From Candidatus Poribacteria bacterium (lineage in GTDB: Bacteria; Poribacteria; WGA-4E; PCPOR2b): 64,000 nt of DNA. The notes beneath the pieces were generated by a model that was not told where the DNA came from, ran no database searches, and saw nothing but the letters and a program-made list of their open reading frames with translations. The stretch covers positions 2,080,001 through 2,144,000 of the forward strand of contig OZ242326.1 in NCBI GenBank assembly GCA_965208325.1, read 5' to 3'. This document shows, piece by piece, positions 9,402-26,036 of this stretch. A program made the translations under genes and the position numbers. Position 1 is the first letter of the stretch, and every line of letters starts with the position of its first letter.

Positions 9402-10430
9402 ATGTCCAATTCCCAAAAGAACGACAGAGAAAAAGTTGACCTCTCGATTGTCATTCCGGTATTCAATGAGGCGGAGAATCTCCACGACCTTTACAGCCGA
9501 CTAACCGATGCGCTTTCAAAACTCAAGAAATCGTATGAAATCATCTTTATTGACGATGGAAGTACTGATCTCAGCTTTGAGATTCTGCGCAAGATGGCTC
9601 AGACGCATACCAATATTCACGCTATCCGTTTTCGCCGCAACTTCGGGCAGACTGCTGCGATGAGTGCGGGCTTCGATTATGCGTGCGGCGAAGTGATTGT
9701 GCCGATGGATGCCGATCTTCAGAATGACCCTTTCGACGTAGAACGGCTGCTAGAGAAATTAGATGACGGCTACGACATTGTCAGTGGGTGGAGAGCGAAT
9801 CGACAAGACGGTTTTTTTCTGCGCCGCATCCCATCAATTCTCGCAAATCGCCTAATCTCCTGGATGACGGGCGTTTACCTCCACGACTTTGGATGTACCT
9901 TGAAAGCCTACCGACGTGAAATACTCGAAAACATTAACCTGTACGGCGAGTTGCACCGTTTTATCCCGGCATTTGCAAATCTGATTGGCGCCCGAATGGC
10001 GGAAATCAAGGTGAGGCATCACCCACGTGCACGCGGGAAATCGAAATACGGCATTTCTCGCACAATTCGGGTCATTTTGGATCTCATCACAGTTAAGTTT
10101 CTCATGAGTTATTCAACGCGTCCAATCCAGATTTTTGGCCTATTTGGCTTAATCTTCTTCCTCTCGGGAATTTGCATTTGCGGATATCTTTCGATTGGGA
10201 AATTGTTTTTCCCGGCGGGCGTTGAATCAGGCATTTTGTCCTATCTTTACGCAGCCACTGGGGAGCGCGGATTTAGTCTAATTGAACGCATGCCGATGCT
10301 GATTTTGGGCGTGCTACTTCTGTTTACAGGCATCCAGTTCATCACAATGGGACTAATAGGCGAATTGGTAATTAGGACTTACCACGAATCTCAGAAGAAG
10401 CCGATTTACGTCATCCGCGACATCATCTGA
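9402..10430 (+). CDS. GT2 polyprenol-phosphate glycosyltransferase (ArnC/GtrB-like)
   Basis: LSIVIPVFNE, IDDGSTD, RRNFGQTAA, MDADLQND; two C-terminal TM helices. Confidence 0.9.
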   Translation: MSNSQKNDREKVDLSIVIPVFNEAENLHDLYSRLTDALSKLKKSYEIIFIDDGSTDLSFEILRKMAQTHTNIHAIRFRRNFGQTAAMSAGFDYACGEVIVPMDADLQNDPFDVERLLEKLDDGYDIVSGWRANRQDGFFLRRIPSILANRLISWMTGVYLHDFGCTLKAYRREILENINLYGELHRFIPAFANLIGARMAEIKVRHHPRARGKSKYGISRTIRVILDLITVKFLMSYSTRPIQIFGLFGLIFFLSGICICGYLSIGKLFFPAGVESGILSYLYAATGERGFSLIERMPMLILGVLLLFTGIQFITMGLIGELVIRTYHESQKKPIYVIRDII

Positions 10431-10574: not shown

Positions 10575-10958
10575 ATGAACAATGGCTTAAGCTTTAGAAT
10601 ATTCATACTACTCGTATTAAATGTGTTATTAACAGTTGGCGGGCAACTGCTGCTCAAGCGAGGGATGATGGCTGTGGGCCCGGTTCAGTCCCTGCGAGAC
10701 GCAATTCCCAAGCTCGTCCAAGCCTTATTCAATCCATTCGTCATTGGCGGAATCTCGGTGTACGGATTTACAATGATGATTTGGCTCATCATATTATCAC
10801 GCGTTAAATTGAGTGTTGCCTACCCAATGATTAGCCTCGGCTATGTTATGTCAATTCTGCTGTCGTGGTTATTTCTTAAAGAATCCGTGCCTAAGATTCG
10901 AATCATCGGGGCGGTTGTAATCTGTATCGGTGTTTATCTGGTTGCCCGCAGCGACTGA
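10575..10958 (+). CDS. SMR/EamA-type small membrane protein (ArnE/ArnF-like flippase)
   Basis: Four TM helices; GQLLLKRG, LSRVKLSVAYP, LKESV. Confidence 0.8.
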   Translation: MNNGLSFRIFILLVLNVLLTVGGQLLLKRGMMAVGPVQSLRDAIPKLVQALFNPFVIGGISVYGFTMMIWLIILSRVKLSVAYPMISLGYVMSILLSWLFLKESVPKIRIIGAVVICIGVYLVARSD

Positions 10959-10974: not shown

Positions 10975-11691
10975 GTGGCAGAGATGAGCACCGTGAAGCG
11001 ATCGTACCTAGCGATGCTTTTATCAATTGTTCCAGGAATGGGACAACTCTATTTACGTAAACCGCTGAAGGGTTTGATTCTATTTCTGGGAGTACTCTCT
11101 GCGGGTGCGGTAATTTACATCAGTTCGCTTCCTGTAAATGATTGGCGCGACTTGGTACGCTTCGATGGACTTGAAACATGGTGGAAATCCCGCCAGGCTG
11201 GCATAGAGTCGCGGGAGGATGCTGGAAAGTCCGAACCTACCGCCGTGAAAGCAAAAGAATATCATGAGCGCGATTACCATTTGTACACATTTGACGACAA
11301 CTTCCTGTTTCGCATTGACGCGCAGTTCCAACGGCACTTAGACAGAAAAAGCATCTCGGAAAAATTGCTGCGAATATTTAAGGACAATAACATCCTGCTC
11401 TCTAAGGAAGCCATTGTTTCTATAAAGAAACCCAACACCCGATGGATTATCTCGGACGGAAATCGCACATACGCGGTCAGGAAAGTAGATGGGCAGTTAA
11501 ACATTTTTGCTGTTAAGAATTTAATGTATCGCCCATCCTGGAAGTTAAAAATTAGCGGCTTTATTCAAGGCATTGCCTTCTGGATCTATGCGGTCTTTGA
11601 TAGTTGGAAGGGACGGCGAGGATTCAATCGGCGGGCACTTAAGAAAAAATTGAAGAAAACTGAACGAGATTCAGTAGAAGAGAGTGAATAA
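10975..11691 (+). CDS. Hypothetical membrane protein containing an inserted ~70-aa domain
   Basis: LLSIVPGMGQLY...KG and FWIYAVFDSW ends typical of a small membrane family. GGAGG RBS before GTG 10975. Insert at about 11302-11508. Confidence 0.7.
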   Translation: MAEMSTVKRSYLAMLLSIVPGMGQLYLRKPLKGLILFLGVLSAGAVIYISSLPVNDWRDLVRFDGLETWWKSRQAGIESREDAGKSEPTAVKAKEYHERDYHLYTFDDNFLFRIDAQFQRHLDRKSISEKLLRIFKDNNILLSKEAIVSIKKPNTRWIISDGNRTYAVRKVDGQLNIFAVKNLMYRPSWKLKISGFIQGIAFWIYAVFDSWKGRRGFNRRALKKKLKKTERDSVEESE

Positions 11692-11817
11692 ATCGATGAT
11701 GGTGCGATAAAGAGTTGAATAAGCAAACGATGGCTTTAATTGAGCCGTGAGACATTAGCGTATTCATGTGATGAACGAAATTTAAATACATGCGGATTGG
11801 GTCAAGAAAGGAAAATC

Positions 11818-12189
11818 ATGCCGTTTTTTGCTTCTGAGAAACTACCCAAAATGCAATTATTCCCCGGCGCGCTCAGCGGCATTGTCGCGGGCGAAAATTT
11901 GCTTCTCTCTTTCCTCGAAATGGAAGAGGGGAGTGAAGTTCCGGCGCACAGCCATCCACACGAGCAAGCCGGTATTTTATTATCGGGGAAGATGCGATTC
12001 AGGATTGGTTCAGAGGAATGCCTCATGGAAGCAGGGGATGCATTCATTGTTCCCCCAGACGTGGTGCATTCGGGGAATGTAGTAGAGGGGCCGGCGCGCG
12101 TGTTGGACATCTTCGCCCCGCCCCGAGAAGATTACATTGATAGATACAATAAGTATTCGAGCACTTCAGCTCAGACTCTTTGGAAATAG
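11818..12189 (+). CDS. Cupin domain protein
   Basis: PAHSHPHEQAG...GD...VPPDVVHS...LDIFAPPRED. Confidence 0.88.
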   Translation: MPFFASEKLPKMQLFPGALSGIVAGENLLLSFLEMEEGSEVPAHSHPHEQAGILLSGKMRFRIGSEECLMEAGDAFIVPPDVVHSGNVVEGPARVLDIFAPPREDYIDRYNKYSSTSAQTLWK

Positions 12190-12287: not shown

Positions 12288-15200
12288 ATGCAATCCAAAC
12301 AGTCTAACGAGCACAATCCATACCGTAAAAACATAACATATTCGCAATGCCCCTCGGTTAATCTCTACCCGGGCGAACAACTCCGCGGCTTTGAGGTAAA
12401 AGCCGTCACGCCAATCGACGAACTGCGAGCTACGGCTATTGAACTCGCCCATGAAAATAGCGGCGCACGGCTACTGCATCTCTATGTGGAGGACACCAGA
12501 AACTGGTTTTCAATCAGTCCGATGACTCCGGCACCCGACGATACGGGTGTACAACACATTGTTGAACACTCCGTAATGTCGGGATCTCGAAACTATCCGG
12601 TCAGGAATGTGTTTTTTGAAATGATGAAGATGAGCCTGGCAAGTTTTGACAGCACGAATGCTATGAACGCGGTCGACCACGCCTATTACTATGCTTCAAG
12701 CGGTGTAAAAAAAGACCTATTCAACCTTGCCGAGGTATTCTTTGATTCCGTTTTTCATGCGCTGCTGACCGAGCAGACATTCAAACGCGAGGGGCACCAT
12801 CTTGAACCTGTGGACTCAAATCAACCGACTGGCGGCTTAAAATTTTACGGGATTGTCTATAATGAGGTTAAAAGCGGTAGATCCGATCCAAGAGCGTGCT
12901 TTTATCTCGCCGTGACCGCCGGACTTCTTCCCGACACCTGCTATGCCAACAACGGCGGTGGAGATTCTGCGGCTATGCCGAATCTTACCTACGAAGGTTT
13001 CAAATCCTTTTACCAAACCTACTTTCGTCCGAGCAACTGTTACTTCTTCTTATACGGGAATATTCCAACAGACAATTATTTGGAGTTTCTCGCTGATAAA
13101 CTTGGAGCCATTCCAAAAACTGAAAAAGACGCGGGGCTCCACCCACTTCGACCGGAAATTTCCCGCCAACCGAAATGGAAATCTGCAAAGACGGTGAGAG
13201 TCTGCTATCCGATTGGAGCAGATGAGCCGCTCACCGAAAAGACACATCTGATGCTCAGTTGGTTAATTGGCGATGCAACCGATCCTGAGGACACCGTATT
13301 GTGCCGAATATTGAGCCTTCTCCTCTTTGGCAATGAGGGGGCGCCCCTCCGAAGAGCGATAATAGGTTCCAGACTAGGTACCGACGTATTCGACAGCGGG
13401 TTCATGGACGGACTAACCGGTCCGAACAGCACATTTCACGCCGGACTGTTAGGCAGCGAAGCGGATCGAATTGACACATTCACGGAATTGGTTCTAAATA
13501 CATTAGCAGAAATTGCAGACGCAGATATTGACACGGAAACGGTTGAGGCTGCGTTTCAACAACTCACATATGAATATCAAGAAGTTACGCCGAAGTTACC
13601 GTTTCAGATGATGAAGCGAGTCATAAACGCTTGGATATATGAAAAGGAACCGACCCTCTTTCTTAAGATGGGAGCATGTCTGTCAACTATCCGCAAACGA
13701 TGGGAGCAGAACCCCCGAATTTTCAATGATTTAATTCGGGAAAGACTGCTTAATAACCCGCATCAATTGACGACTGTCCTTTCGCCTGATCCGGGTATGC
13801 AAGCTCGGCTTGACGCTAATGAGAATCAGCGTCTGGAAAAAATACGCGCGCAATTCAGTGATGAGCAGGTGAGACAGATTGCCGCGGAAGCCGGCGAACT
13901 AGAGCGCTTAAACGATCAACCGAACTCACCGGAGGATTTGGCTAAGTTGCCGCAACTGCAGGTCGCCGATCTGCCGGAGAAGCCGCTGCACATTCCCACA
14001 ACCGTGGAATCGGTCAACGGACGTCCCCTCCTCCGCAGCGAAGTCTTTTCAAACGGCGTGAACTACGTGGAACTAAGTTTTGATTTGCGAGGATTACCGC
14101 AGCATTTATGGAGCTACCTACCCCATTACACGAATGCCATCGGTAAGTTTGGCGCCGGCAAAATGAATTACCAACAGATAGCGAAACGCACGGCGGCAGC
14201 TACCGGGGGTGTTGAATGCGCTCCGACTTTTGGCACGCACGCACTTGATTCATGCCGCCCAGTGTGGAACGTGCAGTTTCGATTGAAAACGCTTGACGGT
14301 AAGATTGAGGATGCAATGCGTTTACTGCAAGATTTGGTATTCGCAGTCAACCCGCGCGATAAGGAGCGTTTATACGTTGTGCTCAATCAGGCAATGACAA
14401 CATTTCGGACTTACATGCAGGGTTACCGCGGCCCAAATATAGCCAACCATCATGCTGCACGCGGGTTTTCGCCTCAGGCATACCTATCGGAAATAGTCTT
14501 TGGGCTCCCTCAGCTGCGTAGGATTGAAAACCTGCTCAATCGAGTTGACGAATGCCATGACCAACTCGGTGAGAACCTTGCACAGATTCGAGATTTCCTG
14601 TTGGTACGCGGCCGCGTCACGGCAAGTTTTACGGGCACTGATAAAGCGAATGGCGTGTTTCAAAGAAAATTCAAAGAGTGGATTGGCAGTATGCGTGATG
14701 AGTCGTTAACTCCGGCGCCAACGGGGTTTGAACCCTTTGAGAAATATCCGCGCGAAGGACTGGCGGCGCCAGTTGATGTAGCGTACTGCACGCAAGTAAT
14801 GCCGGCGCCGCACTACTCGCACAAAAACTCAAGCCTTTTGACTGTAGGAGCGAACATCGTTGCATATGACTATGCGTTCAAGGAAATCCGTCTCAAAGGG
14901 AACGCCTATTATGGATCGTTCGCTTACAACCCCTTTGAAGGGCGAATATACCATGACTCCTTCGCTGATCCGCACATTGCTCGAACGCTAGACGTTTTCT
15001 CACGGACGGGTGATTATGTCAGAAAATCGGAGTGGACGCAGAGCGATATTGATCATGCGATTATTTCGAGAGCGGGGTACTTCCAAAAGACACTCCGACC
15101 TAGCCAAGCCGCAGCCGATGCGCTCACGAATCATCTCACAGGTCAGACGCAGGAAGTTATTGAAGAAAAATATGACCAACTGCGAAGCGCAACTCCTAAG

Positions 15201-15335
15201 GAGGTAAAGCGGGCAATGCTCCAAGTTCTTGAGGAAAATCGGGATAAAGCCTCGGTTTGCGTCGTGGCGAGCCGCGAGAAATTAGAAGCCGAAAACAAGA
15301 AAATGGCAACCCCTTTGAGCATTGAGGACATCTAG
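12288..15335 (+). CDS. M16C metallopeptidase (PreP/insulinase family)
   Basis: DDTGVQHIVEHSVMSGSRNYP (HXXEH), GIVYNEV, EIRLKGNAY, DPHI; 1015 aa. Confidence 0.9.
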   Translation: MQSKQSNEHNPYRKNITYSQCPSVNLYPGEQLRGFEVKAVTPIDELRATAIELAHENSGARLLHLYVEDTRNWFSISPMTPAPDDTGVQHIVEHSVMSGSRNYPVRNVFFEMMKMSLASFDSTNAMNAVDHAYYYASSGVKKDLFNLAEVFFDSVFHALLTEQTFKREGHHLEPVDSNQPTGGLKFYGIVYNEVKSGRSDPRACFYLAVTAGLLPDTCYANNGGGDSAAMPNLTYEGFKSFYQTYFRPSNCYFFLYGNIPTDNYLEFLADKLGAIPKTEKDAGLHPLRPEISRQPKWKSAKTVRVCYPIGADEPLTEKTHLMLSWLIGDATDPEDTVLCRILSLLLFGNEGAPLRRAIIGSRLGTDVFDSGFMDGLTGPNSTFHAGLLGSEADRIDTFTELVLNTLAEIADADIDTETVEAAFQQLTYEYQEVTPKLPFQMMKRVINAWIYEKEPTLFLKMGACLSTIRKRWEQNPRIFNDLIRERLLNNPHQLTTVLSPDPGMQARLDANENQRLEKIRAQFSDEQVRQIAAEAGELERLNDQPNSPEDLAKLPQLQVADLPEKPLHIPTTVESVNGRPLLRSEVFSNGVNYVELSFDLRGLPQHLWSYLPHYTNAIGKFGAGKMNYQQIAKRTAAATGGVECAPTFGTHALDSCRPVWNVQFRLKTLDGKIEDAMRLLQDLVFAVNPRDKERLYVVLNQAMTTFRTYMQGYRGPNIANHHAARGFSPQAYLSEIVFGLPQLRRIENLLNRVDECHDQLGENLAQIRDFLLVRGRVTASFTGTDKANGVFQRKFKEWIGSMRDESLTPAPTGFEPFEKYPREGLAAPVDVAYCTQVMPAPHYSHKNSSLLTVGANIVAYDYAFKEIRLKGNAYYGSFAYNPFEGRIYHDSFADPHIARTLDVFSRTGDYVRKSEWTQSDIDHAIISRAGYFQKTLRPSQAAADALTNHLTGQTQEVIEEKYDQLRSATPKEVKRAMLQVLEENRDKASVCVVASREKLEAENKKMATPLSIEDI

Positions 15336-21740: not shown

Positions 21741-24700
21741 CTAACCCGCACGGTGATACCCATGCCCTTCACCGGTAATCTGGTATAGGGCATCCGCTGT
21801 CCAGAAATGCACCTCCGGATCGTCATCGCCCAAAGCCGATTCCAGCACAGATATAGCACCTTGATGCTTTGACGCGGCAAGTCCCTTGATGATATCTAAC
21901 CTCAAATTCTTGGTCGTCTGATTCACAGGAAGCGATTTCAGTTTCTCAATCAGCGCGGTAACGGCGGCGTCCGTCCCTATTTTTCCAAGTGCAATTGCAG
22001 CATCACGGCGAATCTCTTCATGATTGGTTTCAGTGTTGAAGACATCAATAAGATCTGGCACAGTGGAGGCGTCTGCAAATTCACCCACACCTTGCGTGGC
22101 TCCGCGCCGCACATCTTTATCCGCTTCTGTTTCACCTTTCATTATTTTCACTATTTCATCTTGAAGTTCTCGAAGCTTGCCCTCACCAATGCCCCGCGCT
22201 GTGGACTGGCGGATTTCTTTTTTCTTGTCATTCAGCAGTTCTCTAAGCTTCGATACGGCTTCCGGTGTTTTGGACTTTCCAAGTGCATTAGCAGCTGCGG
22301 CCTTAATTGGCCAACTTTCAGGTTTACTATTCTCGATCCGCTCAATCATCTTGTTCGCAACGAAGGGCGGCAATTGAAACGGTTTGGAGGCACTGACGAA
22401 AGCCTCAAATACAGGGTTGTGGGTAAATGTATCCGGCGTTATGGTCACTCCATATTCTGTGTCGTCAACGAGCCGCCTACTAATTGATTCAGCAGCGCGG
22501 TTATCCCCAATTGCCGCGAGCGCGTCGGCGGCATAAATACGGGTATCCGATTCCAGGCTTCTGTCTTCGAGAATAGCAATCAATTCCGTCACGGCTTCGC
22601 GACTATTGAGTTTGCCTAGTGCCGAAATGGCGCTCTTGTGGACAGCTCCGGTTTCTGCTCTAAAAATTCGAAGGATTGCCGCTGCCGAACTGCTGTCGCC
22701 AATCAATCCGAGCGCGGTTGCACACGCCGTCCGCACCGATGTATCTTCTAGAGGGTTATGGAGGATTTCAACTAGTTTATTGACAGCATTTGCACCTTTG
22801 ATGGCGCCCAATGCCGTTACAGCATGCAACCGAACTTCGGCGTTTTCATCGTCTAACGCAGCCAGGAGCGGGGTTGAAGCACGCTCGTCAAGCAACTTCG
22901 CCAATGACGCGGCTGCCGCTGCTCGAATTGACTTTGACTCATTCGTATCTTCAAGCACCGCAGTTAAGTCTGCAACAGCATTTCGATCTTTGAGTTTTCC
23001 AAGCGCAGCCACTGCCTCCTTGCGAACAAGGTAACTCTGATTTGTCATCGCCTCGCGTATCGCAGCCATTATGTTTTGATGCAGCGCGGGCGTCATTGTT
23101 ACTTTGTCGGACGTTCCCCGGATTTCTCCGATTGTATGTACAACTGCCCAGCGAATCCATTCTTCATCATCGTCGACGGATTTCAGCGTATCAAGCAGCA
23201 AATTGATTGTAGACGCATTGCCGTCTTTGACGAGTGAAGCAATGACTTCATTCATAACGGATTGGACTTCGTGCTTTTCTTCAAAGGGCCCTAAGCCTTT
23301 TTTCAACACATCGACCAACCCTCCGTCCGCTAACTCTTGCTTTAGTTCACGCAAAGCGATGGCTGCTTGTTTACGAGTTTTTTCAAACTTGTCCCTTTTG
23401 AGCGATGTTAGCAGAGGAGCGACCACCTTCTCACCTTTGATTTTGTTTAACGCGGCCGCGGCCTCTTGCCGCACAATGCCGTGCTCATCATTCTTGAGCG
23501 CATCAATCAAGTGGGAGATGACGGATTCTCCGTTGATGTCTCCTAAAGCTAGCGCGGCACTCCGGCGCACCGCTGCACGCTCGTCGTCATTCAGGGCGTC
23601 AAATATCGCATCCAATACTTGGTCACCTTGGGTGTAGACGTTCAGATTATCACCGACTTTCCGGAAATGGTACCGCTGCTGGTTCTCTTTATCGGTAACA
23701 AACCAAATTTCGCCTGCTCGGTCGACTACAATAGTTGGATTTTGGGAAAGCGCGATTTCTTCTTCTCCGAGTTCATGCAGTAAATTTTCCGGAATCTTGC
23801 CACTGTTCAGATCTGTGACATACTCGGCTAATTGAGTGCTAAAAAACAGTAATTCTCCTTTTATTTTGCCTAGTGAGATGGCTGCCTCGCTTCGCACAAG
23901 ACCGGGAATCGGCTTTAATTCTCCCCACTTTTGATAATCAGGTTGGGGATATTCAGGCGTCCATTGAATACCCAAGGAATCAACAGCAGCACCCAAAGCC
24001 TCAAGCGTTTTGTGTTGCCTTTTCATGTGCCGTTGGAAATCCTTGACGTCTTCGTAGCGTGTTGACAAAACCCACAAAAGCGCAGGCACAGTTTCTGGTG
24101 CTTTAATTTCTCCCAAAACTGCCACGGCTTCTTTCCGAATAATTTCACTCGTCTCATCGCTAAACATCAACTGCATCATTGGCTGAACGGCTTCCATTGC
24201 CTTGAGTTGACTTAATGCGGTAAGCGCCGCCCGCCTTATCGTCTCACGTCCACGTTTGTCCATCGCCATTGCGACGAGTTTGTTAATTGCCCGTTGACTC
24301 TTTATGTTGATATTTCCGAGTGCGACAGCAGCGTTAGTTGCGGTTGTATCATCTAAATCAAGGGCGTCAGTGAGTGCATCAACAGCGATGTTATTACTAC
24401 CAGGGGTTTTCATTGTGCCAATGGCTTTAGCGGCTGCCGTTTTGACTTCCTTTCTCGGATCGTTCTTAAGAGATTCGGTGAGGGAGTTTAACGTTCGCAA
24501 ATCTCCAATCGTGTCCATGACCTCGGCAGTCCGAATCCTGATAATATCCCTGGAAACTTTTAGGGTACCCGCGTCTTTTCTGACAGAATATGTTCCTTTT
24601 TTGTGATGTTTACCTTTATCCGTTATCAACCATTTGCTGTCTTCTTCCTCAAGAATAATGGATACATTTTCAGATAAGGTGAATCCGTTATTTTCCAACA

Positions 24701-26036
24701 CCCGTTTAAAATTCTCCGAGACGTATCCGTTGTTTAAATCGTTCTGGAACTCCGTGCTTATAATTAATGACGGATAACGCAGCGCTTGAATTAGATTGGG
24801 AACTGCAACTTCCTTCATTACAGCCAACGCACTAGCCACGTCCCCATGCAAATCATCGTCTTCAAAAAGATTGATTAGCCGTGCAACGGCCTCCTTAGCT
24901 TTCAGGGCGCCAAGGGTTTGAATGGCTGCGGCTTGGGTGCTGATTCGGCGGTTTTTCAGCCGGTCTGTATCAATATAGACATTTGCAATGTACTGATACT
25001 CATTCCTGAAATTAGGTTCGTCATCTTCCTCTGGAATTACGTTCTTAGCCCCTGAGTCCAATACTGCAATCAAAGGATTAATTGCTAACTGTCCAATCTG
25101 AATCAGTGCGGTCATGGCGCTGTTTTTGACGTGTTCATTTGCATCTGCGAGCAACCGGACGAGATCGACTATGGAATCTTCTGCCTTCAGCATACCGAGC
25201 AGCTTTGCGGCTAACATGCGCACTTGCGCTACGTTAGTTCTTGTGGCAAGCCGCAATGCGGGAACAATGCTTTGCTGGTCTTTTAACCCCTCTAGCGCTA
25301 CAATTGCCTCGTACAACACATCTGGCGATTCATCCTTTTTCTTCAGAACGGATTCTAGCTCGCGGATGAGCCGCGGATCTTTCAAGTCTCCTAGGTGCTT
25401 TATAGCCTGTTTTCTGATGGCGGCGTCGGGATTTTGAATTTCATTGACCAACAGATTGTAAACCAGCTCTTCATCATTAAGTTGCTGAATTAGCGCGGCT
25501 GATGCCTGACGATGCTTTGGATGAAAGCAATTTTCCGCCTCCAGCAACGCCGTGATGACAACGGAATTTGGTTGACTCGCTAAGGTTGAAAGGAGTTGTG
25601 AGTTTTGCTCGGCGGCTTCCGCGAGCGCGTTTGCAAAGGCACCAACAATCGAGTTTCGAGATCGAACAAGCCATTCGAGCTGGTCCAACTCATCCGAGTC
25701 TGGATCCTCGAGCCTCTCCGATGCTTCAATCTCCTCCTTGAGAGGCTGTAAATTGCCGAGAATTTTCTGTATGGCAGTGTGCCAGTCAACCGCTTTCGTT
25801 TTCCAACCCGTGCCTGAGGTTGCACGCAACTGGAGTAACACATGCAGTGATTGAGCTTCGAGGTGATTTGGTTTGTTCGACAGTACGGTTTGTATCGCTG
25901 TTTGAGCAACGGTATAATTTGCATCATCCATCGCCTCCCTCGCTTCTAGCAAGTCTACATCCTCTTTTTCGCCACACCCAGCGAGTAAACCGATAATTAA
26001 ACCAAAACTGATAAACAGGAGAATCCTGCGTTTCAT
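21741..26036 (-). CDS. Large HEAT/PBS-lyase repeat lipoprotein (1431 aa) with two inserted ~70-aa domains
   Basis: Lipobox LAGC; many VR..AA.ALG.I.d..av..L...L.D repeats; inserts at about 23631-23855 and 24552-24770. Confidence 0.9.
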   Translation of the reverse strand: MKRRILLFISFGLIIGLLAGCGEKEDVDLLEAREAMDDANYTVAQTAIQTVLSNKPNHLEAQSLHVLLQLRATSGTGWKTKAVDWHTAIQKILGNLQPLKEEIEASERLEDPDSDELDQLEWLVRSRNSIVGAFANALAEAAEQNSQLLSTLASQPNSVVITALLEAENCFHPKHRQASAALIQQLNDEELVYNLLVNEIQNPDAAIRKQAIKHLGDLKDPRLIRELESVLKKKDESPDVLYEAIVALEGLKDQQSIVPALRLATRTNVAQVRMLAAKLLGMLKAEDSIVDLVRLLADANEHVKNSAMTALIQIGQLAINPLIAVLDSGAKNVIPEEDDEPNFRNEYQYIANVYIDTDRLKNRRISTQAAAIQTLGALKAKEAVARLINLFEDDDLHGDVASALAVMKEVAVPNLIQALRYPSLIISTEFQNDLNNGYVSENFKRVLENNGFTLSENVSIILEEEDSKWLITDKGKHHKKGTYSVRKDAGTLKVSRDIIRIRTAEVMDTIGDLRTLNSLTESLKNDPRKEVKTAAAKAIGTMKTPGSNNIAVDALTDALDLDDTTATNAAVALGNINIKSQRAINKLVAMAMDKRGRETIRRAALTALSQLKAMEAVQPMMQLMFSDETSEIIRKEAVAVLGEIKAPETVPALLWVLSTRYEDVKDFQRHMKRQHKTLEALGAAVDSLGIQWTPEYPQPDYQKWGELKPIPGLVRSEAAISLGKIKGELLFFSTQLAEYVTDLNSGKIPENLLHELGEEEIALSQNPTIVVDRAGEIWFVTDKENQQRYHFRKVGDNLNVYTQGDQVLDAIFDALNDDERAAVRRSAALALGDINGESVISHLIDALKNDEHGIVRQEAAAALNKIKGEKVVAPLLTSLKRDKFEKTRKQAAIALRELKQELADGGLVDVLKKGLGPFEEKHEVQSVMNEVIASLVKDGNASTINLLLDTLKSVDDDEEWIRWAVVHTIGEIRGTSDKVTMTPALHQNIMAAIREAMTNQSYLVRKEAVAALGKLKDRNAVADLTAVLEDTNESKSIRAAAAASLAKLLDERASTPLLAALDDENAEVRLHAVTALGAIKGANAVNKLVEILHNPLEDTSVRTACATALGLIGDSSSAAAILRIFRAETGAVHKSAISALGKLNSREAVTELIAILEDRSLESDTRIYAADALAAIGDNRAAESISRRLVDDTEYGVTITPDTFTHNPVFEAFVSASKPFQLPPFVANKMIERIENSKPESWPIKAAAANALGKSKTPEAVSKLRELLNDKKKEIRQSTARGIGEGKLRELQDEIVKIMKGETEADKDVRRGATQGVGEFADASTVPDLIDVFNTETNHEEIRRDAAIALGKIGTDAAVTALIEKLKSLPVNQTTKNLRLDIIKGLAASKHQGAISVLESALGDDDPEVHFWTADALYQITGEGHGYHRAG

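Follow-up and report, generated by a model that had tools for sequence, protein, structure and literature searches.

An unnamed ~70-residue alpha/beta module, most likely inserted in frame into many unrelated proteins of Poribacteria

The segment at positions 11302..11508 is most likely one copy of an unnamed ~70-residue alpha/beta module that proteins of the sponge-symbiont Poribacteria have repeatedly incorporated, in frame, at their loops, linkers and termini. The window, i.e. the whole 64,000-nucleotide stretch of DNA that was analysed, carries three copies, one in a small membrane protein and two in a HEAT-repeat protein. We favour, with moderate confidence, the reading that the module folds by itself, is tolerated by its hosts and has spread by in-frame copying, as a selfish-like passenger that does not bring one shared catalytic job to the proteins that carry it. 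The features concerned are the following:

10975..11691, plus strand: host gene, small membrane protein of 238 aa with a GTG start and a weak DUF5683/DUF6677-like match (PF18935, E 3.9e-4)
11302..11508, plus strand: module copy (~70 aa), recognised from the HMM envelope, shuffle controls, AlphaFold and its absence in short homologs
21741..26036, minus strand: host gene, 1431-aa HEAT/PBS-lyase-repeat protein (Pfam HEAT_2, E 2e-106)
23634..23849, minus strand: module copy 2 in the HEAT-repeat protein, residues 731-802 of the 1431-aa ORF
24552..24770, minus strand: module copy 1 in the HEAT-repeat protein, residues 424-496 of the same ORF

The segment codes for 69 aa, residues 110-178 of the 238-aa ORF. 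The original prediction had placed it between YHLYTFDDN on the left and AVKNLMYRPSW on the right, and was borne out in both coordinates and flanks. It had also claimed a likeness to the inserts of the HEAT-repeat protein, to be judged against shuffled controls. This likeness is clear: a profile derived from the two HEAT copies alone gives the segment 36.3 bits, above every one of 2,000 shuffles (mean -1.3, maximum 10.9; 0/2,000 as high). A leave-one-out profile made from the 21 other genomic copies raises the score to 71.6 bits, with a shuffle maximum of 13.4 (0/2,000 reaching the real value). The HEAT-repeat protein itself begins with a hydrophobic, TM-like segment (residues 6-24) reading ...LLAGC, which resembles a lipoprotein signal (lipobox).

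We compared the small membrane protein with 38 homologs: a long class of 15 sequences (229-253 aa) and a short class (151-182 aa) that takes in all the others. Homologs shorter by about 70 aa had been anticipated, and the short forms are indeed interrupted at the module site only: in an alignment of 20 homologs, all long forms contain the module and all short forms display a single clean gap. The empty site reads ...HLYTFEDG|KKLMYRPSWK..., to be compared with ...YTFDDN[FLFRI...LNIFAV]KNLMYRPSW... in the ORF 10975-11691. The orthologs in G028, G029, G027 and G141, which belong to four other families of the phylum (f2, f3, f4 and f7), are short ORFs in which the flanks abut, and the site is filled in G007, a member of the same family (f1) as the genome under study (G000; G001, G002 and so on denote its relatives); this insertion is thus specific to family f1.

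The host protein scores 20.9 bits against DUF5683 (PF18935), below the gathering cutoff of 26.7, and a precomputed PF18935 match exists for 14 of the 38 homologs. In the AlphaFold model of the whole protein, hydrophobic helices (residues 30-51 and 189-216) lie on either side of a long loop that bears the module, and the module is the sole part predicted to fold confidently, with a block pLDDT of 79-89. Predicted strands at residues 104-114 and 174-182 cross both host-module junctions, and the model fits an insertion of the module into a turn between two host strands; the secondary-structure string suggests that its two ends leave the host side by side. Upstream of this gene lie a family-2 glycosyltransferase (9402-10430) and a small EamA-like four-helix protein (10575-10958), and downstream a cupin (11740-12189) and a PreP-like M16 peptidase (12288-15335). 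The glycosyltransferase, the EamA-like protein and the membrane protein could form a candidate lipid-linked sugar module.

The consensus of the module is xLFxIxxxFQxDLDxGxISxxLRxxFxxNGIxLSxNAxVSVxxxGxxWLITDxxNxxTYxVRKExxxLNVY. Given alone to AlphaFold with a 22-row alignment, it is predicted to fold with confidence into a strand-helix-helix-strand x4 arrangement (mean pLDDT 97.4, pTM 0.84). Over 106 copies, the best-conserved columns are nearly all hydrophobic (L2, F3, L13, I18, L22, F26, L33, V39, W48, I50, Y59, I61, L68, V70 and Y71); the conserved columns of another nature, S34, D52 and D14, look like cap or turn residues.

Neither the sequence nor the predicted fold corresponds to a described family in the collections that we searched. 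Pfam and NCBIfam hold no family matching the 11302-11508 segment at E <= 1, and Pfam returned only scattered sub-threshold matches for consensus-like and multi-copy module proteins. PHROGs and PADLOC gave no significant match, the best hit of a PDB sequence profile search has an E-value of 0.071, and Foldseek against the PDB stops at E 0.31. With VIA-align, the best Z among 48,161 chains is 4.0 and none reaches 5; KA1 and AMPK C-terminal domains score at Z 3.0-3.7, a loose likeness that we treat as a lead only. Viral structures from BFVD (best E 0.32) and the ESM Atlas (sub-threshold leads only) complete this picture. The fold may recall the periplasmic alpha2-beta4 domains of BLIP, PepSY and BamE, again as a lead only: PepSY, SmpA_OmlA and BLIP give no Pfam match to the module even at E <= 10 and do not occur among the fold matches listed; a distant likeness is possible. 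We found no description of the module in the literature searched.

We then built a profile from the three copies in the window and ran it, with iteration to convergence, over the six-frame translation of the 4.7-Mb genome. This recovered 24 module copies, 22 of them full, in 20 ORFs. The guess that there would be many more copies genome-wide was correct, and it underestimated the scale, which is phylum-wide and takes in essential housekeeping hosts. According to Pfam, the module lies between the OB domain and the catalytic core of aspartyl-tRNA synthetase (AspRS), between the activator-interacting and core-binding domains of sigma-54, and among the PDZ domains of RseP. The other hosts with a Pfam family are CtaA/COX15, a Wzy-type O-antigen-ligase-like protein, UPF0182 (two copies), a TamB/AsmA-like giant protein, an M23 peptidase, a HAMP histidine kinase, a DUF255 thioredoxin-like protein and a DUF4861 protein; five hosts lack a Pfam family, four having no match and one a sub-threshold match only. 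Note that the module is added at termini as well as internally, since it is N-terminal in a TPR protein (L001) and C-terminal in a HEAT+PDZ protein of G007 (L069, G007:C1:5836760-5839984; residues 476-550 of 564), the 498-aa counterpart of which in G000 (C1:3585956-3587449) does not carry it. An ECF-sigma/Reg_prop host (L017, G000:C1:2412355-2414562) holds one full and two truncated copies in tandem (residues 405-459, 459-494 and 496-576). Within the genus, this host is listed with copies for G000 and G002, and not for G001 or G003.

Hosts are biased towards the membrane and export. With a crude hydropathy predictor and a crude background gene set, a TM- or signal-like segment was found in 16 of the 20 hosts of this genome vs 38% of the background (odds ratio 6.5, Fisher p 2e-4), and in 60/86 hosts of the other genomes. 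In multi-pass hosts, the textbook topology of the families concerned places the loops that bear the module outside the cytoplasm: these are the TM1-TM2 loops of the kinase and of CtaA and, in RseP, a position among the PDZ domains. Plainly cytoplasmic proteins are hosts too, namely AspRS, sigma-54, RpoB, RpoC, SecA and trigger factor.

The module profile matches all 41 of the closest genomes, with 6-41 matches each, and 145 of the 151 genomes sampled across the phylum. The six genomes without a match (G044, G045, G067, G109, G138 and G145) belong to families f5 and f6 of the same class and have a completeness of 79-95%; another f5 genome, G112, has a single weak copy. If the module-free f5/f6 genomes were those of free-living Poribacteria, the module would be tied to life in sponges.

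To follow individual sites, we compared nine genomes, G000 and eight from seven other families: 100 loci were fetched, the module was masked, and the host ORFs were compared with G000. The 106 hosts of these genomes form 67 host families, 46 of which are filled in only one of the nine. Some sites are common with G000, in CtaA (G007, G027 and G029), sigma-54 (G007 and G029), AspRS (G028 and G029) and the kinase (G028 and G029); the CtaA insertion is thereby retained across families f1, f3 and f4. In the HEAT-repeat protein, the second site (23634..23849) is common with the G029 ortholog, in which the first site (24552..24770) is empty. The three deepest lineages share almost no site with G000 (0/13 for G041, RseP only for G042, and for G141 a UPF0182 insertion at a different site).

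At sites that are filled elsewhere and empty in G000, the G000 ortholog aligns cleanly on both sides, with a flank identity of up to 81%. RpoB is filled in G007, with flanks 68/81% identical to those of G000, and RpoC, trigger factor, signal peptidase I and an S41 peptidase are filled in G041. BamA/Omp85 (filled in G028, G029 and G042), CCA/poly(A) polymerase (G029), YibE/F (G007, G028 and G029), VWA proteins, ABC transporters and others belong to the same category. SecA was hit twice independently, since different sites are filled in G007 (residue ~706, in the wing/scaffold domain) and in G042, where the module replaces a 45-residue variable stretch of the second nucleotide-binding domain (residues ~510-556 of the module-free G000 protein; L121, C1:1561247-1564003). 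The host sites were filled at different times in the phylum. Gain and loss were judged by parsimony over these nine genomes, and differential loss from a module-rich ancestor is a possible alternative to repeated gains.

A module copy can also be removed exactly. The G002 histidine kinase is 93-96% identical to that of G000 and lacks precisely residues 164-243; the residues abutting the junction differ (QLYIQPD vs ELFAEPE) and no flanking repeat is visible. Since the copy is present in G000, G001, G003 and two other families, its absence from G002 points to a recent exact loss or an allelic replacement.

The copies are old and what is kept is the protein, as shown by the identities among the 22 full copies of this genome, which average 31.5% for amino acids, 48.5% for nucleotides and 35% at third codon positions. 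Comparing 19 hosts between G000 and its congener G002, we obtained a pooled dN/dS of 0.265 for the module (1,573 codons) vs 0.174 for the flanks (8,904 codons, including some upstream stop-to-stop sequence), with an equal dS of ~0.20. The module is a translated sequence under purifying selection. One of these pairs, the L005 host, contributed only 46 aligned module codons; its G002 ortholog (C1:3352468-3352674) has an in-frame TAG within the module copy, which could reflect an incipient pseudogene, a sequencing error or recoding.

We also looked for a signature of mobility in the DNA. On the 22 full copies with 30-nt flanks, terminal inverted repeats score 6.36 vs 5.87 in shuffles and junction direct repeats 5.1 vs 4.6, and the mean RNA-fold z-score is 0.08. 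A DNA profile run over the genome with nhmmer gave 24 matches, all of them (24/24) the in-frame copies and none intergenic or out of frame. Young copies were not found either, the closest pair at non-orthologous sites having 58% amino acid identity. The nearest non-orthologous copy comes from the same genome at roughly the chance rate. G141 (6/9) departs weakly from this; identities there are only 35-46%, and the single 99% pair corresponds to a duplicated host.

These data bear on how the module arose and why it persists. It might be a selfish DNA repeat, RPE-like or MITE-like, whose translation is accidental, since in-frame insertion into many unrelated genes, housekeeping ones included, is also described for Rickettsia palindromic elements (RPEs; PMC10969869). 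However, terminal inverted-repeat, direct-repeat and RNA-fold scores near those of shuffles, nhmmer matches that are all in frame with none in intergenic DNA, and a protein pattern kept at ~48% nucleotide identity with third positions near saturation make this an improbable account. Today's copies largely refute it; the module may have begun long ago as such an element. As the copies come without inverted repeats, target duplications or non-coding counterparts, the module is not a Rickettsia-type palindromic element. Removal after transcription or translation, as for an intron or an intein, would suit its presence in highly conserved essential proteins, where inteins also reside; we nevertheless regard it as extremely unlikely. 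The first columns are L/L/F and columns 69-71 are N/V/Y, with neither a conserved Cys/Ser/Thr nucleophile nor a terminal His-Asn; Hint and intein families of Pfam are not matched, there is no RNA structure signal, and codon-level purifying selection together with a confidently predicted fold of its own indicates a retained part of the protein. To our knowledge, 70 aa is also below the size of the shortest mini-inteins.

A more serious contender, which we hold to be possible though doubtful, is a working adaptor that binds the same ligand or partner in all its hosts (for instance an envelope component, a lipid or the module itself), selected to tether, co-localise or regulate its hosts. Purifying selection (dN/dS 0.27), the retention of some sites across families, the enrichment of membrane or exported hosts with a module that is usually extracytoplasmic (as in the TM1-TM2 loops of the kinase and CtaA) and tandem arrays in large repeat proteins elsewhere all speak for it, and the conserved aromatics F3, F26, W48, Y59 and Y71 could, from their conservation in the sequence, form a binding site. 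Against it stand the strictly cytoplasmic hosts (AspRS, sigma-54, RpoB, RpoC, SecA and trigger factor), because of which a partner would be needed on both sides of the membrane, and conserved columns that look like a hydrophobic core with turn caps rather than a polar surface patch. Moreover, the module evolves faster than its hosts, a copy has been lost from a kinase that is otherwise 93-96% identical, and no known binding domain is matched. Bacterial genomes tend to delete useless DNA, and retention across families, with CtaA filled in f1, f3 and f4, together with the dN/dS of 0.27 argues for more than mere tolerance. The enrichment of membrane and exported hosts may likewise stem from a genuine function in the envelope and not from loops that tolerate insertion, and the tandem arrays in non-Poribacteria-like proteins with pentapeptide, MORN, Baseplate_J or CARDB parts look like a working binding module.

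The reading that we favour, a self-folding unit tolerated by its hosts, would work as follows. Because its two ends appear to leave side by side, the module could be accommodated in a surface turn without much harm to the host. It would spread by duplicative copying of coding DNA, in frame, from gene to gene, leaving no transposon hallmarks; because no young copies were found, this copying step is one that we infer. As an unfolded insert would harm the host protein, selection would act on the fold of the module, and copies that fold would persist. A secondary role in the cell envelope is compatible with this reading, given that the hosts tend to be membrane or exported proteins. A stronger version, which we consider rather unlikely, would make the module a selfish element at the level of the domain: a coding cassette copying itself in frame, by a mechanism not yet described, into at least 67 families that include RNA polymerase, SecA and a tRNA synthetase, its fold rendering it both harmless and hard to remove.

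Several known systems resemble the module in part. RPEs, presented as 'selfish DNA in protein-coding genes' (PMC10969869), are likewise short units inserted repeatedly, in frame, into unrelated genes of one lineage at places that the host tolerates. RPEs are, however, DNA palindromes visible at the nucleotide level that also occur between genes, whereas the module shows neither dyad symmetry nor terminal or flanking repeats nor a non-coding copy. Unlike RPEs, it is conserved at the protein level only and codes for a complete domain predicted to fold with confidence. With inteins, the module shares the appearance of a selfish insert in the most conserved essential proteins (RNA polymerase subunits, SecA, an aminoacyl-tRNA synthetase), but it has no splicing residues, Hint fold or homing endonuclease, and the selection on it and its fold suggest that the mature protein keeps it. 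The lineage-specific insertions of RNA polymerase (SBHM/SI domains) are small beta-rich modules largely confined to that enzyme. They too are small autonomous domains at permissive surface sites of RpoB and RpoC, but the module occurs in at least 67 host families, and its alpha/beta fold is a different one for which the PDB searches gave no clear neighbour. PARCEL repeats are described as 25-residue amphipathic tandem repeats with palindromic DNA in ORFs of unknown function; like the module, they are coding repeats, patchy across taxa, shuffled within genomes and often found in membrane-targeted proteins (PMC2996958). Unlike PARCELs, the module is a 70-residue globular domain, inserted singly and into housekeeping hosts.

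What is new here is a complete and, by prediction, well-folded domain that has no DNA signature and, in the collections searched, no family name or clear structural neighbour. Within a single phylum it occurs in several dozen proteins that are unrelated to one another, including those that are most strongly conserved in the cell. With about 2,600 cluster representatives worldwide, it constitutes a new domain family. Its sites form a natural catalogue of insertion-tolerant positions in essential proteins and can serve as lineage markers within Poribacteria. The module also raises the question of how a domain-sized coding piece is copied in frame time and again; if a common partner exists, the module would instead be a lineage-wide tagging system.

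The family probably extends beyond the phylum. Among 1.84 billion cluster representatives, 2,634 proteins match the module at E <= 0.001 and 1,018 at E <= 1e-10. Of the best 150 of these 2,634, 138 have at least two copies, a figure biased towards multi-copy proteins because the ranking is by whole-protein score, and in 111 of the same 150 the flanks have no G000 homolog. Some of the matches listed have a high-GC composition; in these, tandem copies of the module are joined to pentapeptide, MORN_2, TPR/Wzy_C, Baseplate_J/BNR, CARDB or ProW-like permease parts. These versions are the same domain, since a profile of ten high-GC copies (A3) recovers 21 of the G000 copies. We looked for the high-GC carriers among Chloroflexota and did not find them there: 80 loci of Dehalococcoidia/Chloroflexota and others match only the permease part of the high-GC module protein P0113, with the module in 0/80 of these loci, in 0/5 genomes of the P0113-matched loci and in 0/301 sampled Chloroflexota genomes. 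In tblastn searches of phages and plasmids, the matches of P0059 were confined to its baseplate-J part and those of P0095 to its ProW-like part, and P0008 had none in phages. Two of the metagenome proteins, P0059 and P0029, are large Baseplate_J proteins with 3-4 module copies, P0059 having BNR/Sortilin repeats as well, and may belong to phage-tail-like particles of high-GC bacteria.
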